Origin: a virus | Direction: 5' to 3' (one strand) | Virus record (IMG/VR): IMGVR_UViG_3300037400_003528 | Coordinates: 1-64,000 of that record | Length of the DNA: 64,000 nt | Part shown: in pieces, positions 34,986 through 47,600 of the stretch | How the letters are laid out: every line of letters begins with the position of its first letter | How positions within the stretch are numbered: the first letter of the stretch is position 1 | Notes under the pieces: model-generated | Database searches by the model: none | Told to the model about the DNA's origin: nothing | What the model saw: only the letters and a program-made list of their open reading frames with translations | Translations under genes and position numbers: made by a program

Positions 34986-35048
34986 TTGACAACGGGGGAA
35001 TTTTGTGGTATAATTCGGCGCGGGTCAGAGACCGCGCGCCGGCGATTG
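34986..35048 (+). promoter_or_regulatory. antisense promoter cassette C1: TTGACA-N17-TGgTATAAT + GC hairpin ggcgcgggtc..gaccgcgcgcc
   Basis: perfect sigma70 consensus, extended -10; palindrome starts ~7 nt after the -10. Confidence 0.6.
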
Positions 35049-35111
35049 TTAAATATTTAACAGTATGTAGGTATAAAAAAACAGGCGTTTCCGCCTGTTT
35101 AAATTTAAATG

Positions 35112-35272
35112 TTATTCATCGTCTATCCATGTATCTATAACGTATTTATCTTCTATCATCCAAATTTTACAGTACATAGAAGTGTCTTTTTCTAACTCTG
35201 TATCTTCTGGGTCAGAAAGAATATGGATAAGTGTTTTTTTTGCTTCTTCATAAGTGTTACAATAAAGCATTT
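35112..35272 (-). CDS. small hypothetical protein (~53 aa)
   Basis: ATG/TAA ORF with terminator downstream. Confidence 0.3.
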
Positions 35273-35357
35273 TTTTACTCCCTTGTTATAAAATCAAGTA
35301 TTTTCCAGAACGTCCACCAACAAAGGTAAACTCGTAGAAGAACATAGAATACTTCAA

Positions 35358-35585
35358 TCATCTGTTTTTCCCCTTTGCAATATCATTAAACTTAAACCAC
35401 ATTCCATTTTCTGTATCTTCCCAATATTTTTCTAAATCTTCATAGGGAATAAATTTTTGTGCAAACATGATAACACCAAAAGCATGCGCACGGAAGTTTA
35501 AAACAGATTCAAAAGTTGTAGCATCTTTTGCATTAGCAAGCATCTTTTCTACAAATTCTTTAACATCATTCATTGTGATAGTCAT
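35358..35585 (-). CDS. hypothetical protein
   Basis: ORF track. Confidence 0.45.
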   Translation of the reverse strand: MTITMNDVKEFVEKMLANAKDATTFESVLNFRAHAFGVIMFAQKFIPYEDLEKYWEDTENGMWFKFNDIAKGKNR

Positions 35586-35587
35586 AA

Positions 35588-35803
35588 TTACAACCCCCTA
35601 TTAATTGTAAGTCTGCCAAACAGTTTGCAAATATAAACCCATTCGTCATCATCTGTTGCAAAGAATTCAAAATCTTCTTCATCGGGGCAATCAGGAATTC
35701 CTGTAATAAACCATGCTCCAATGAGCGTTTCATCTCCAAGCTGAAGAATATAATCATTCATATTGTGAAGAAGTTTGACTCTGGTTTTTTGAAGTTTTGT
35801 CAT
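35588..35803 (-). CDS. hypothetical acidic protein
   Basis: ORF track. Confidence 0.45.
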   Translation of the reverse strand: MTKLQKTRVKLLHNMNDYILQLGDETLIGAWFITGIPDCPDEEDFEFFATDDDEWVYICKLFGRLTINRGL

Positions 35804-35991
35804 AATTTTTTTCCTTTCTGTGTTTTCCTCTTGACAATTATTATTATAGCAGAATATTGGGAAAATACAATAGGTAATGTTGTATAAAAATGCGGATTAA
35901 TTTTTGTTGAAAGTGTCTATTGACATATTTTTGGGCGCTGACACAATGGTCAGCGCCCCGACCAGAAATTAATCCAGACAGGGCGACCGCT

Positions 35992-36195
35992 TTAAAACTC
36001 TACAAAGATTTTCTTCTGACAATCAGGACACAGACCAGACATAAAACGCTCGCGGTCAGTAGGTGACATGTGCGGAAAAGCATCCTGTACAAGTGCACCA
36101 GACTGATATTCAAGATACTGTTTCATTTCAACAGTAAGCATGTGATATTCGCCACACATAGGACATTCAAAACCGATGGAAATAGGAAATTTCAT
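35992..36195 (-). CDS. zinc-ribbon protein (CPMC...CPDC)
   Basis: ORF track. Confidence 0.45.
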   Translation of the reverse strand: MKFPISIGFECPMCGEYHMLTVEMKQYLEYQSGALVQDAFPHMSPTDRERFMSGLCPDCQKKIFVEF

Positions 36196-36206
36196 ATTTA
36201 CCCCCT

Positions 36207-36515
36207 TTAATGAAATTCAAAACAATCAAAATCATTAATATCAAGATTAACAGTATCAGCATATTTAATATCACTGTTTCTGATTAAATTTCCGCTGAAA
36301 AGATAGCTAAGAGTTATATCATTATCAAGAAGTGTACAATATGCTTTTCTAAAATTATCAATTAATATAGCACGTCTTTTCTTTTCTCTTTTTTCTTTTT
36401 CTTTTTCAAGAGTATGAATGGCGGAAGTCAGCTCCGCAATGCTTTCATCAATACTATCTGAATCATCCTGTTTGCATGCTTCATTGATAAAATTAAGAAG
36501 TGCTTTATTATCCAT
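36207..36515 (-). CDS. hypothetical protein
   Basis: ORF track. Confidence 0.45.
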   Translation of the reverse strand: MDNKALLNFINEACKQDDSDSIDESIAELTSAIHTLEKEKEKREKKRRAILIDNFRKAYCTLLDNDITLSYLFSGNLIRNSDIKYADTVNLDINDFDCFEFH

Positions 36516-36965
36516 TTTTATCCTTCCTTTTTAATATAATGAACAAAATAATTTAAAGTTTCTTCTTTTCCCCAGTCTTCATTAAACATAGTGTCTTGAA
36601 CAGCTTTTAAGGCTTCATTAAATGGACAATTCTGATATTTGTCCATTATATAAAGAAACCAACATTTAATATCATGTTCTGTGTACATTTTTTTATTCTC
36701 CCTTCCTGTTGATGATATTATTATATCAGATTATAGGAAAAATACAATATACAAGTTGCATAAAAAATCAAATGAAAATTTGTTAAACATATATATTGAC
36801 ATGAAAAATGGCACGGCTGGATTGTAGCCGCGCCAGCCATAGATTTAATTGTTCTATAAGCTGGCGCGTTTGTTTAAAAAGCAAAGCCACTGCCATTATC
36901 TCCGTTTCCGTAAATCATGAAAACAGCAATCAAAACTCCGCACAGTAAGTAAAGTCCACCAACAT

Positions 36966-44995: not shown

Positions 44996-45487
44996 TTTTT
45001 TAATCCCCTTTCTTTTGATGATTATATTATATCAAAATTTTTCTTTTTTGTCAACGATTAAAAATCAATTTTTTTTATATTTTTGACGGTTATAATCCTT
45101 TTTGGATTTATGTGTTCTAATCCCTGTGTTAAAAGGGATTAGAACACGTTTTTGTGCATTTTTAGCTTTTTTTACTTTTTTATTTTCATTTATCATTTTA
45201 TTACCTTTTCTGTTTTATTTTTCGGCAGTAATAACAATTGTTCCATGTCTCTGTCCAACGCTGGTTACTTTCCAGTCTAATTGCTGTTTAGCATTGTAGC
45301 AGATAATAGTATCATACCAGATATGGTCTTCATACAAGTCAATATAAAATTCATCGCACAGGTTCATAAATTCTCTAACAGTCATTTTTTTATCTCCTTT
45401 CTGTTGATGGTTATATTATATCAAAAGGTTTATATATTGTCAAGTATTTTAGGAAAAATTTTTTAAAAAATTTTTTAAAAAAAATGC

Positions 45488-45561
45488 TTGACAGCCTGGC
45501 TATACATGTAATATAATTAAACTTCGGGCCGCAGCGGAGAGAAGCAGTCCGCTGCGGCCCG
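45488..45561 (+). promoter_or_regulatory. antisense promoter cassette C9 (hairpin gggccgcagcggagagaagcagtccgctgcggccc) followed by terminator hairpin 45567-45595
   Basis: TTGACA-N18-TATAAT. Confidence 0.55.
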
Positions 45562-45831
45562 AACAAAAACCCCATACATTGTATGGGGTTTGAAAGGATT
45601 GATAATATTACATATAAGTTGGATGGAAAGCAATGACTTTACCATGTTTTGCGACCTGAACCCTTTTCTCCTGAGCAGAAAGTCCGTGGAACCATGCCTG
45701 TGTGCCATCTGCGAAAGTGTACCATCCCTGAGTATTTTTTCTTGCCATTTTTATACCACCTTTCTTTTATGTTTTGTTTTCCTTTGTTGATTATATTGTA
45801 TCAAAGAATTTGGTTTTTGTCAAGTGATTTT

Positions 45832-46131
45832 TTAAATTTTGTTGTAACCTGCTCTCATATGCTCAATAGCAAGATTGATGATTGCCTGCGGAGCTTCGTT
45901 TTCTGCGTAGTACCGTTTAATCTGATTCGGTCTTGCAATGAGAACCGTAACCATGATGCCTGTTCGCTGATTGTAGATAATTACCAATCCGGTTGTGGTA
46001 ATCTTATGGACTTCAGGCCCATTCCTATGACCACGGTCTATTGTTACTTCCTTTATAACTTGCCCCATTCCGATCTGGGCAATAATCCGGCTACGTTTCT
46101 GGCGGTCGGCTCTCCAGTGTTTGCTATTCAT
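45832..46131 (-). CDS. hypothetical protein
   Basis: ORF track. Confidence 0.45.
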   Translation of the reverse strand: MNSKHWRADRQKRSRIIAQIGMGQVIKEVTIDRGHRNGPEVHKITTTGLVIIYNQRTGIMVTVLIARPNQIKRYYAENEAPQAIINLAIEHMRAGYNKI

Positions 46132-46260
46132 ATTAAATGCTCCTTTCTGTATTTGATATACTAATTATACTTTATAAGGGGCTACTGGTCAAGTAAAATT
46201 GAAAAGAAAAAATGTACAATTATGGGATAAAAAATTTGTGCAACTTTTTTCAGATTTCGC

Positions 46261-46330
46261 TTGACAATCTGTATAGAGGCGTGGTATAATGAAATTTCGC
46301 CCCGCTCTGGCCAGACGCGCGCCGGCGCTC
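46261..46330 (+). promoter_or_regulatory. antisense promoter cassette C10 (hairpin cgccccgctctggccagacgcgcgccggcg, imperfect)
   Basis: TTGACA-N18-TGgTATAAT. Confidence 0.5.
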
Positions 46331-46398
46331 CACATATATGAAATTCAGTTTTATAAAAGTGGCGGTTTTTTAGGTGACCGCCAACACCTTATTAGTTA

Positions 46399-46686
46399 TT
46401 AAAATGACATAGATGCAACAAAATCTTTGTATTCGCCTTTTCCTCTAATCTCCATCTCTCCATCATGCCAGATGATAATTTCAATCATATCATTTTCCGC
46501 CCAGAAATCATCGGAGATGTCATATGTGAGAGAAAAATCATCATCACCATAACCGGAGTATCCACACCACATTCCATCCTCAATTTCAATGACTCCGGTT
46601 TCAACCTCTTTCCTGATTGTCTCTCTCTCTTCCATTGCGGTCTTTACTGCATTTGCCATCATTTCAATAAAATCGTATTTTGTCAT
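46399..46686 (-). CDS. hypothetical acidic protein
   Basis: ORF track. Confidence 0.45.
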   Translation of the reverse strand: MTKYDFIEMMANAVKTAMEERETIRKEVETGVIEIEDGMWCGYSGYGDDDFSLTYDISDDFWAENDMIEIIIWHDGEMEIRGKGEYKDFVASMSF

Positions 46687-46765
46687 TTTTTTATCTCCTT
46701 TTTTCTCGGTATGTACTATTGTTCTCTATGGCGGTTTTTTAAGGGAACCGCCAAACCCTTGTATT

Positions 46766-47023
46766 TTAAATTTTTCCTACAATCTGTTTAACTGTTGCTA
46801 CTGTAATGCTCCAATCCCATGCCGTGTAATATAAGGCGTTTTGTTCTGTAAGGTTCGGATTTTCCAGTGTAATCCATTTCATGTTTTTCTGAAAATCCTT
46901 GGCGATTTTTTTACAATCGTCATAAGAAATCGCTTTTTTTGAGGTGTAGAGCAGAGGCTCGGTATTGAGCATCCACTGGTAAGTGGCGTGCTGGTTAATA
47001 GAATCAATTGCCATAGTCATCAT
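46766..47023 (-). CDS. hypothetical protein
   Basis: ORF track. Confidence 0.45.
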   Translation of the reverse strand: MMTMAIDSINQHATYQWMLNTEPLLYTSKKAISYDDCKKIAKDFQKNMKWITLENPNLTEQNALYYTAWDWSITVATVKQIVGKI

Positions 47024-47337
47024 TTTTTATCTCCTTCCTGTACTTGTTTGTTTGCTTCATTTGATGATACAAGTATATCGCATCTAATAGGTAAAAACAA
47101 TCGGCAGAATTAACAAAATTAAAGTATTTTAAAAATTCTTTTTGTGCAGTTTGACGAAACCTTCAGCAAGTTGCACAAAAACTGGTTCTAATTATTATAT
47201 AAAATATACAAAAAAAACATGAAATAAAATTGCACAAAAAACATAGCCTGTTTTTGTACAAAATAGAGAATTTTTTTCTACGTATTGCACAAAAATGGGA
47301 TATTTTTCACTTTTTAAATTTGTGCAAATTTTCCTCT

Positions 47338-47600
47338 TGACAACAGCAACCCATATATGATATAATTTTTCGGCCTTTGGTCGCCCAGTTCGTTAAAAAT
47401 TTAACAAGCGGTCTGCTGTGTTAGATTGTTAAAGTTTTAACAAGCCACATTGTTAAATAATTAACAATTTTAGGATAGAAAAATTTTAGAAAATTTTTTA
47501 AATTTTCCTCTTGACAAATCACACTCACGTGTGATATAATATTTTCGCCGCGCAGCGGCGAGTTCGTTAATTTTTTAACAATCCGCAAAATTGAAAAATC
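47338..47600 (+). promoter_or_regulatory. two further plus-strand promoters (47338 and 47511) each followed by two palindromic sites GTTAA-N6-TTAAC (4 sites in all)
   Basis: cgttaaaaatttaacaag / tgttaaagttttaacaag / tgttaaataattaacaat / cgttaattttttaacaat. Confidence 0.5.

Follow-up and report, generated by a model that had tools for sequence, protein, structure and literature searches.

Antisense promoter-hairpin cassettes at the operon ends of a large uncultivated phage: possible insulators fed by a host-type promoter

What can a near-perfect host-type promoter be for if it serves no gene of its own and points into the end of a gene on the opposite strand? The question is raised by a repeated cassette of promoter and G+C-rich hairpin in IMG/VR virus record IMGVR_UViG_3300037400_003528, of which positions 1 to 64,000 were analyzed (the window, 64,000 nucleotides). 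The window belongs to a large phage with 29 tRNA genes, including one with a CTA anticodon (amber suppressor), and a ROOL RNA. The source phage is uncultivated and comes from the gut or rumen, and the CW_7 repeats of its lysin point to a Gram-positive host. The cassettes lie in its early-gene region (∼35100 to 47800), which contains only small genes, all on the minus strand, most of them without known function and many with consensus promoters of their own. These genes were called from open reading frames (ORFs) with ribosome-binding sites, matches to PHROG families, and the tRNA-Lys gene at 40129 to 40202. The answer tentatively favored here, at a probability somewhat short of even, is that the cassette may be an operon-end insulator, a collision or roadblock boundary fed by a host-type (sigma-A) promoter.

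Thirteen plus-strand promoters of the sigma-A type are found between 34986 and 47958, every one antisense to minus-strand genes, with −35 boxes starting at 34986, 38558, 39998, 41240, 42175, 42941, 43850, 44721, 45488, 46261, 47337, 47511, and 47929. The window contains 20 matches to TTGACA-N16-19-TATAAT where 0.15 would be expected, and 0 of 100 shuffles reach this number. Eleven exact matches are on the plus strand, all within 34986 to 47540, and two near-perfect copies (TTGACT at 42941 and TATACT at 47929) complete the set. A preliminary description of this DNA had listed 13 such promoters among minus-strand genes, each a consensus promoter with an extended −10 box that fires into the preceding gene at its terminator and 3′ end, and this anatomy is borne out. 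Its right-hand end at 47560 leaves the last copy (47929 to 47958) outside, and its figure of ∼27% G+C for the genome compares with 32.2% for the window (26 to 40% across 2-kb windows).

The cassette measures ∼130 bp and is composed of the motifs TTGCACAAA / AAATTTGTGCAA, the promoter TTGACA-N17/18-TRTGnTATAAT, the segment GGAAAATT, and the hairpin. An inverted motif pair, TTGCACAAATTT.GGGA and AAATTTGTGCAA, stands upstream of each promoter, and the upstream motif TTTGTGCAA is found 15 times with at most one mismatch, against 6 expected, with 14 of the 15 within 33668 to 47327. The consensus of the 88 units collected from relatives and window (see below) reads ..TTGCACAAATTT.GGGA..AAATTTTGT..AAATTT.CTC-TTGACAAAA-N-GGGGTGTGG-TATAAT-GGAA.TTTCGGC. 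The initial transcribed region of the cassette promoters has 72% G+C, compared to 36% for other promoters.

A G+C hairpin begins 1 to 8 nt past the −10 box in nine of the first ten modules, with stems of 8 to 16 bp and folding energies of −17 to −35 kcal/mol in the window. The predicted 5′ transcript segments of the hairpin-bearing modules fold at z scores of −3.5 to −10.9; strong 5′ hairpins (z of −4.4 to −10.9) belong to the modules at 38558, 39998, 41240, 42175, 42941, 43850, 44721, and 45488, and that at 34986 is bulged. The palindrome earlier described behind the promoters is confirmed for these nine and is missing at 46261, where a G+C block folds no better than shuffles (z of −1.1), as well as at 47337 and 47929; the copy at 47511 has a 5-bp stem only. 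Perfect G+C-rich stems of at least 8 bp are confined to 35933 to 45563 across the whole 64 kb (n = 9), seven of them in promoter modules and two in promoter-less copies (35933 and 37602). Stem and loop sequences vary between copies, as had been described.

Related elements were sought in several ways. Seven relatives (L001 to L007) were fetched via a neighboring gene for a 234-amino-acid protein, and others came from viral contigs scanned for the pattern, from scanned genome bins, and from a BLAST search that led to phage phAss-1 of the "code 15 clade." The generic pattern scan of viral contigs gave mostly chance matches in high-G+C contigs and was usable after filtering for promoter plus hairpin. 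The search of related genomes suggested in the preliminary description yields 88 promoter-plus-hairpin units after removal of duplicates, in which hexamer frequencies are biased because detection relied on regular expressions with one mismatch allowed per hexamer. A TG precedes the −10 box in 80 of these 88 promoters, and the −16 motif TRTG, a signature of Gram-positive promoters, is present. The distance from the −10 box to the stem is 7 to 9 nt in 58 of 87 copies. An unbiased count starts from the hairpins alone: among 79 hairpins from 15 loci, 51 have a promoter matching at least 11 of the 12 hexamer positions within 12 nt, compared to 1.8% of random positions, and 48 have a perfect 12/12 promoter alongside. 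The promoter scores at these hairpins are bimodal, at 6 to 9 or 11 to 12, with none at exactly 10. This conservation argues that the promoters do fire. Together with the covariation of the stems given below, it indicates that both promoter and hairpin are under selection.

The cassette recurs in many uncultivated phage contigs and in phAss-1 and is conserved across this phage group. A megablast search of 50,697 phage records with the 15-kb region returned no relative, and a blastn search with one cassette gave a single match, of 29 nt, in phAss-1. In the scan of genome contigs, the cassette occurs in metagenome bins only (of mixed taxonomy, with Lachnospiraceae, Clostridia, and others) and in no isolate genome; no cultured host was found. 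The paper describing phAss-1 makes no mention of promoters, hairpins, or a cassette.

Of the 63 single units in the related loci, 55 point at the 3′ end of a gene on the opposite strand; the coding strand in relatives was assigned by a simple rule (an ORF with a ribosome-binding site and an ATG), which replaced a too-noisy measure of stop-to-stop ORF coverage. The units in relatives lie at operon ends and not at internal promoters (L113). In modules 34986 to 46261 of the window, an intrinsic terminator of the minus strand, here called T1, follows a few to ∼45 nt beyond the hairpin or G+C block, mostly within ∼15 nt, and belongs to the preceding minus-strand gene or tRNA; a minus-strand terminator also lies ∼40 nt downstream of 47511. 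The linker between hairpin and T1 is A rich, with a median length of 11 nt. The promoter, with perfect −35, −16 (TRTG), and −10 elements, is situated just downstream of T1 and points back at it. On a combined reading of the scans, nearly every minus-strand terminator in 34900 to 47900 is adjoined by a module or by a promoter-less copy.

The hairpin itself is conserved as a structure rather than as a sequence. In the common 27-nt hairpin class, compensatory double changes are found at seven of the eight stem pairs and 95.8% of cells are paired, a covariation score reached by 0 of 500 shuffles; G·U pairs are absent from this class. Strand-wise folding energies show no preference (30 versus 31, p = 0.63), and the mismatches, 12 of the C·A/A·C type and 8 of the G·T/T·G type, are balanced between the strands. 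This lack of strand preference in stability and mismatches indicates that the hairpin is kept as a true palindrome, a finding that agrees better with a structure required in RNAs of either direction, or at the DNA level, than with one required in a single RNA. In the 8-nt tail after the hairpin, T residues number 2.8 on average when the gene strand is read and 1.1 for the promoter strand. The possibility that the G+C hairpin is an intrinsic terminator in either direction was rejected, as a U tract stands on neither side.

The typical terminator organization of a stem followed by a U tract appears only among the promoter-less copies. The window has three of these (35920, 36796, and 37589), which are missing from the earlier inventory and retain the upstream part, the TTGACA, and the hairpin while the −10 region is gone. 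The plus-strand copy at 35920 to 35958 consists of TTGACA and a G+C hairpin (35933 to 35958) and has neither a −10 box nor a U tract. The other two are canonical terminators of the minus strand: at 36796 to 36835 the hairpin (36835 to 36809) is followed by TTTTT and abuts the remnant TGTCAA, and at 37589 to 37628 the hairpin (37628 to 37602) is followed by eight T residues, in tandem after a T1 at 37640 to 37665. Loss of the promoter core leaves the hairpin next to the A run behind TTGACA, which leads to a canonical hairpin-plus-U terminator on the gene strand. Copies converted in this way occur at 36796 and 37589 in the window, at 13002 in L001, at 2524 and 4910 in L048, and at 2862 in L114. 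From these substitutions, an opposing promoter and a U tract look like interchangeable means by which the same hairpin can stop sense transcription.

Some relatives contain a further variant, in which a second promoter, usually the weaker of the two, stands on the far side of the hairpin and points toward the first; it often has TAAAAT as its −10 box and a GG discriminator abutting the stem. This face-to-face form occurs in L002 to L004 near position 11200, in L012, L057, L074, and L113, and in phAss-1; the modules of the window have no sense partner promoter across the hairpin. There are 26 distinct pairs, 19 of which have 36 to 38 bp between the −10 boxes, and this fixed spacing accounts for the constant 27-nt length of the hairpin. 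If transcription starts ∼7 nt after each −10 box, the two start sites are ∼24 to 26 nt apart. Open-complex footprints are too large for two open complexes to form at this spacing. Since the two complexes could not coexist, such a pair looks designed for jamming and not for the production of any transcript.

These observations can be joined in a model of an operon-end insulator. Converging transcription at the cassette is predicted from the promoter sequence and its conservation. The predicted transcript of the cassette enters the G+C hairpin after 0 to 3 unpaired bases; as a Watson-Crick palindrome, the hairpin would also form in sense transcripts that read through T1. Polymerases loaded at the very strong antisense promoter would sit at the boundary or advance a few tens of bases and would meet the polymerases reading through T1 head-on. 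The hairpin, ∼10 A-rich bases from T1, would trap or pause polymerases from either side, which would fix the place of collision and keep read-through out of the next cassette. This would be a programmed collision as in convergent Escherichia coli genes, with the opposing "gene" reduced to a promoter and a hairpin, and the face-to-face version of relatives would be the same device fed from both sides. Each early cassette would in this manner be kept transcriptionally self-contained. Likely side effects would be short or truncated antisense RNAs with a hairpin-protected 5′ end and recombination between the repeated cassettes, shuffling small early genes. The proposal brings together the placement at terminators, the selection on the promoter, the two-way hairpin, the promoter-less copies turned terminators, the face-to-face pairs, and the collision precedent in E. 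coli. Among the functions suggested in the preliminary description, the insulator or roadblock is the one favored here; a small RNA (sRNA) of 60 to 100 nt with a bidirectional terminator finds no general backing, and nothing speaks for an array of decoys or for priming sites.

Several points weigh against the insulator. Polymerase occupancy, pausing, and collision, and with them the activity of the promoter, are deduced from the anatomy, conservation, and evolutionary substitutions of the sequence. A perfect promoter that is not terminated would send polymerases antisense into the upstream operon, which looks costly; a plus-strand U run follows the T1 hairpin in only ∼3 modules of the window, and the region has one strong plus-strand terminator, at 45110. 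The insulator has no need of the conserved upstream TTTGTGCAA motifs, and it leaves unexplained that the cassette always lies back-to-back with the next sense promoter. The distance of 7 to 9 nt between the −10 box and the stem suits a hairpin protecting the 5′ end of an antisense RNA at least as well.

This last point leads to the main rival, which is rather unlikely but compatible with the insulator, as the two leading readings are not exclusive. Here, the cassettes would make antisense regulators, RNAs whose 5′-terminal G+C hairpin guards against 5′-end-dependent decay. Early expression would be lowered or shut off either because these RNAs base-pair to the upstream early mRNA at its 3′ part and terminator or because their polymerases collide with others within the gene. 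The 0 to 3 unpaired bases at the predicted 5′ end fit such protection, and 5′-terminal hairpins of this geometry stabilize the ompA mRNA in E. coli and the ermC mRNA in Bacillus subtilis. Most modules have no plus-strand terminator, so that transcripts would run into the upstream gene, and the conserved upstream motifs could give timed control. If selection acted on the antisense RNA alone, however, G·U pairs should be tolerated, and the 27-nt class has none; C·A and A·C mismatches, which on the gene strand would become wobble pairs, are no rarer than G·T/T·G. The promoter-less copies become sense terminators instead of decaying, a consensus promoter active from the start of infection would oppose the phage's own early genes, and the face-to-face pairs of relatives cannot make a long antisense RNA efficiently. 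A discrete sRNA of two hairpins was rejected for most copies, which have no U run behind the second hairpin.

The back-to-back arrangement suggests instead, as an improbable alternative, that the strong antisense promoter helps the next and weaker sense promoter, through negative supercoiling or a shared activator or UP element, and that the hairpin and T1 only keep the helper transcript short or harmless. The next sense promoters are ∼60 to 70 bp away and often have a nonconsensus −35 box (TTGTAT, TTGCTT, or TTGTGT), and a AAATTTGTGCA motif in inverted orientation lies upstream of each −35 box. Such help gives no reason for a covarying palindromic stem of G+C only or for its fixed position against T1, and it explains neither the face-to-face partner promoter nor the conversion of promoter-less copies to terminators; moreover, the modules at 45488 and 46261 adjoin sense promoters that are already near consensus.

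A role at the DNA level has a slim chance. The ∼130-bp repeats would then be substrates of recombination that shuffle early-gene cassettes, with the transcription signals carried along. Small ORFs of unknown function lie between direct repeats of the cassette, and the gene content between cassettes varies among relatives with breakpoints at the cassettes. L002 to L004, for example, are without the window segment of ∼40070 to 41320 between modules 39998 and 41240, and in a descriptive comparison, indels and rearrangements between the window and L001 to L004 have ends at cassettes. Promoter-stem-loop repeats of T4-type phages, described below, act in this way (PMC2839356). Recombination needs identity, not a perfect promoter with a covarying hairpin of differing sequence, and would not account for an antisense orientation conserved in distant phages; shuffling is probably a consequence rather than the selected function.

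Equally slight is the prospect that tiny 5′-triphosphate G+C hairpin RNAs, or the holding of polymerase itself, provide a decoy or sink for host RNA polymerase, an RNA-binding factor, or a defense sensor. A perfect promoter joined to an initial region so rich in G+C could favor stalling or very short products. The face-to-face promoters would both make the same stem, and the reverse complement of the partner TAAAAT supplies, on a reading of the sequence, an AUUUUA tail. For this form especially, mass-made short 5′-triphosphate hairpin RNAs acting in trans as decoys or inhibitors of a host RNA-sensing defense or ribonuclease can be imagined with just as little likelihood, the operon-end placement being secondary. 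A decoy has no need to be placed at operon ends facing terminators, the variable stems and loops indicate no specific partner, and no U tract stands behind the hairpin in the window.

Least probable of all, at a very small likelihood, are signals of the minus strand only, in which the hairpins would back up the termination of sense transcripts or mark sites of their processing, and the promoter-like halves would be nonfunctional: two promoter-less copies are true minus-strand terminators, and the C·A mismatch of the 39998 family, a G·U wobble on the minus strand, recurs in the paralogous 42941 and in L001, L003, and L004 but not in L002, yet perfect −35, −16, and −10 elements beside 48 of 79 hairpins, with bimodal scores, cannot be a by-product, and the gene-strand tail is poor in T, as given above.

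Further candidates were tried and rejected. CRISPR-repeat mimics, RNA anti-CRISPRs, and solitary CRISPR repeats do not fit stems of 8 to 16 bp of G+C whose stem and loop sequences differ among copies; this variation excludes mimicry of CRISPR repeats as well as a sequence-specific protein or RNA partner. Hairpin promoters of the N4 type and integron attC sites were dismissed because stem and loop sequences are too variable and the stems perfect. By eye, no k-mer is common to all copies that could be a Chi-like or other shared stem motif. The modules have no Rfam match, either at the gathering threshold or at E values of up to 5.

If the insulator is real, a whole group of uncultivated gut and rumen phages uses host RNA polymerase as a programmable barrier, with a gene-less promoter that exists only to stop other polymerases. 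The cassette-bearing group is one of large Gram-positive phages that recode the TAG stop codon. The combination of a terminator, an opposing promoter, and a two-way hairpin would be a natural compact insulator. Collision-driven termination would then extend beyond gene pairs of E. coli to an element devoted to it, and it would be clear how small early-gene cassettes can be shuffled and yet remain self-contained; the insulator would also be a useful part for synthetic biology in Firmicutes. Should the antisense-RNA explanation hold instead, at least 10 stabilized antisense transcripts would act on early operons, an unusual temporal control.

The individual modules, all on the plus strand, follow a common plan with small deviations. 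Module 1 (34986 to 35041) contains its promoter at 34986 to 35014 (TTGACA-N17-TGgTATAAT) and the bulged hairpin at 35016 to 35041; an operator-like palindrome, TTGTTAA-N-TTAACA, follows at ∼35046 to 35062, and the minus-strand T1 that the module faces lies at 35079 to 35100. Module 2 (38558 to 38631; promoter 38558 to 38586, hairpin 38595 to 38631 with a 13-bp stem) faces the T1 (38665 to 38701, minus strand) of a 128-amino-acid gene (38707 to 39093); this T1 has A and T runs on both sides. Module 3, including its upstream motifs, extends from 39945 to 40059, with TGCACAAATTTTGGGAT at 39947 to 39963, AAATTTGTGCAA at 39978 to 39989, the promoter at 39998 to 40026, and the hairpin at 40035 to 40059, ahead of the minus-strand T1 (40073 to 40092) after the tRNA-Lys gene. 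Module 4 (41240 to 41314; promoter 41240 to 41268, hairpin 41276 to 41314 with −33 kcal/mol) faces the T1 of a 149-amino-acid gene at 41325 to 41342 (minus strand), and module 5 (42175 to 42249; promoter 42175 to 42204, hairpin 42212 to 42249) faces that of a 121-amino-acid paralogue at 42258 to 42281 (minus strand). Module 6 (42941 to 43002), with the TTGACT promoter at 42941 to 42969 and the hairpin at 42978 to 43002, is directed at a terminator-like minus-strand hairpin at ∼43016 to 43047. Modules 7 (43850 to 43923; promoter 43850 to 43879, hairpin 43887 to 43923, T1 ∼43930 to 43965), 8 (44721 to 44794; promoter 44721 to 44749, hairpin 44758 to 44794, T1 ∼44802 to 44824), and 9 (45488 to 45563; promoter 45488 to 45517, hairpin 45523 to 45563 with a 15- to 16-bp stem, T1 ∼45567 to 45591) are of the same build. 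In module 10 (46261 to 46327), the promoter (46261 to 46290) is followed by a G+C block (46298 to 46327) that is no longer a good hairpin, with T1 at ∼46360 to 46383.

The last three promoters lie at the boundary of the region. Promoter 11 (47337 to 47366) lacks a real hairpin; GTTAA-N-TTAAC palindromes come after it, at 47391 to 47470. Promoter 12 (47511 to 47582; promoter proper 47511 to 47540) has its 5-bp G+C stem at 47547 to 47559 and a GTTAA-N6-TTAAC palindrome. Promoter 13 (47929 to 47958; TTGACA-N18-TATACT) is without a hairpin and points into microsatellites and 44-bp iterons. These iterons are five tandem units at 48085 to 48304, each with a TGTTAA-N6-TTAACA palindrome, adjoined by (ATT)n and (TGTT)n microsatellites in a gene-free region of ∼1.4 kb at the right edge of the early region. 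Related repeat stretches occur at 47998 to 48062 and 47391 to 47582, the same GTTAA-N-TTAAC palindromes stand behind the boundary promoters 34986, 47337, and 47511, and similar arrangements are found in L079 (position 4105) and L001 (positions 1451 and 2044). This arrangement may mark a replication origin or a genome terminus, or it may serve as a repressor array.

Other features of the early region are of separate interest. The sequence CCTCTTGACAA, identical to the −35 region of the antisense promoters, is also found on the plus strand at 35824, 37494, 42068, 43746, and 44616, in the 5′ untranslated regions (UTRs) of neighboring sense genes, where the mRNA reads UUGUCAAGAGGAAA and no usable −10 box is present; these copies could be a remnant of duplication or a 5′ Shine-Dalgarno-like stabilizer. 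A noncoding stretch of ∼390 nt with higher G+C (43010 to 43400, minus strand) has its own perfect promoter (43436 to 43408) and terminator and is a candidate structured RNA without an Rfam match; the segment 43235 to 43446 is 96.7% identical to L001 6235 to 6446, with flanking genes ∼75% identical. A leader of ∼190 nt (44440 to 44620, minus strand) upstream of a 61-amino-acid gene (44244 to 44429) contains ACCGCTGGTCTGTAGGCGGCAGATACC in two near-identical copies and a third, diverged one and may be a structured 5′ UTR. Two very short, G+C-rich transcription units at 38170 to 38470 (minus strand), with their own promoters (38509 to 38481 and 38352 to 38324) and no convincing ORF, are candidate small RNAs, and similar units occur in L002 at 11380 to 11620. 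Enterococcus phages H1, EF1, and VRE9 are cultivable relatives with early genes in common. In H1 (L141), two candidates for an antisense promoter with a small G+C hairpin are located at positions 14939 and 18129 on the minus strand.

Three minus-strand genes for proteins of 121 to 139 amino acids (37675 to 38082, 40247 to 40666, and 42292 to 42657) have a higher G+C content than their surroundings and all match phrog_19455, a family of unknown function. Their consensus promoters are of one near-identical class, in which an inverted repeat, CTTATG...CATAAG, surrounds the −10 box, and the three genes are read as paralogues. Long plus-strand ORFs starting at the TTG of TTGACA (e.g., 41240 to 41845) are probably antisense frames of G+C-richer real genes, since the other two paralogous genes have plus-strand ORFs of only 83 and 37 amino acids opposite them.

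Outside the early region, a tRNA cluster at 6755 to 19613 holds 28 tRNA genes, among them the CTA-anticodon tRNA at 11091 to 11167 (minus strand), which is consistent with TAG recoding and with a link to the "code 15 clade" phage phAss-1. The full-length ROOL RNA lies within this cluster at 14887 to 15483 (minus strand; 279 bits, model positions 1 to 574 of 574). Beside the tRNA cluster, the minus strand encodes a protein with DUF2828, DUF7788, and a weak VWA match (3978 to 5540), adjoined by a weakly matching nucleotidyltransferase (5960 to 6748, minus strand). DUF2828 is presumably related to the TROVE/Ro60 family, whose members usually work with a Y-RNA-like partner. An 808-amino-acid protein (27634 to 30060, minus strand) combines a major-vault-protein shoulder with SPFH/Band 7 domains, which is unusual for a phage.

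Among known systems, the closest structural analogue is the promoter-early stem-loop (PeSL) of T4-type phages, so that the preliminary statement that no described phage element has this layout is too strong. PeSLs are cassettes of ∼100 bp with a strong early promoter and a G/C stem-loop. The ∼50 copies lie on either side of ORFans and bring about modular shuffling (mini-circles) (Arbiol et al. 2010, PMC2839356; Comeau et al. 2014, PMC4122927). A PeSL promoter transcribes the gene that follows it, and transcription arriving from upstream on that strand is ended by the stem-loop (PMC2839356, PMC4122927). Both elements are repeats of ∼100 bp with a very strong sigma-70-type promoter and a stable G/C-rich stem-loop, number in the tens, lie in a plastic part of the genome with small genes of unknown function, and mark the places where the gene content of relatives differs; in one PeSL subclass, the stem-loop also lies just downstream of the −10 box. 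The cassettes described here match in their strong promoter (12/12 hexamer positions and TG in most copies, in a consensus of >100 bp) and in their stable and covarying stem-loop. They do not show the orientation that defines PeSLs, as they are antisense to genes in 55 of 63 single copies, with the promoter directed into the preceding terminator. Their hairpin has no U tract on the gene strand, a face-to-face form exists, and neither the phage lineage nor the (Gram-positive) host is that of T4-type phages. PeSL-like sense promoters do occur in the relatives phAss-1 (L127) and Enterococcus phage H1, many of whose early promoters in sense orientation carry the TTGACA within the loop of the terminator that precedes them (e.g., AAAAGGGG-TTGACA-ACCCCTTTT).

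For the proposed mechanism, the nearest precedent is provided by convergent genes of E. coli. Single-molecule work there showed that bidirectional terminators depend on head-on collisions of polymerases to keep read-through from occurring, that an RNA stem-loop is required to place these collisions at a defined site, and that trailing polymerases release the collided complexes, which makes the efficiency of termination a matter of how strong the promoters are (Wang, Watters, Ju, Liu; bioRxiv 10.1101/2022.10.23.513370). The insulator would share the converging polymerases, the two-way hairpin at a gene boundary that positions the collision, and the dependence on promoter strength; a hairpin able to form in RNA from both directions is indeed found, with neither G·U pairs nor a strand bias in stability. 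The opposing polymerases in E. coli come from a real convergent gene, whereas here they would come from a dedicated promoter transcribing the hairpin only, and the E. coli case was established by experiment, in contrast to the phage case, which is read from the genome.

Opposed promoters and antisense promoters in other systems resemble parts of the cassette. The pR and pL promoters of coliphage 186 form a face-to-face promoter interference system. In the two-promoter rifampicin sensor of helD/pps in B. subtilis, the two start sites span 39 bp (both included), and regulation was lost when 17 bp of this distance were removed (PMC12802891). The pairs in relatives of the window phage likewise combine a stronger antisense with a weaker sense promoter at short range, for which mutual interference is expected. 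They differ in their closer start sites (∼24 to 26 nt), in the G+C hairpin between them, and in being repeated at many operon ends rather than at one gene; such two-promoter units are found in relatives, while the window has the antisense partner only. The OOP RNA of phage lambda is a single 77-nt antisense RNA with its own terminator that acts on cII. For the host-takeover module of phage SPO1, Stewart et al. reportedly proposed in 1998 antisense middle promoters, which are said to depend on a phage sigma factor. In both cases, as here, a promoter is antisense at or beyond the 3′ end of early genes. The cassettes differ in their number, 10 to 13, in their host-consensus sequence, and in their 5′ G+C hairpin mostly without a terminator; the combination of own promoter and own terminator seen in OOP is not general among them, as a U run follows the second hairpin in only ∼3 modules. 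The literature search found no description of a gene-less antisense promoter-hairpin unit at operon ends, and neither the antisense orientation nor the face-to-face version appears in any paper that it returned.

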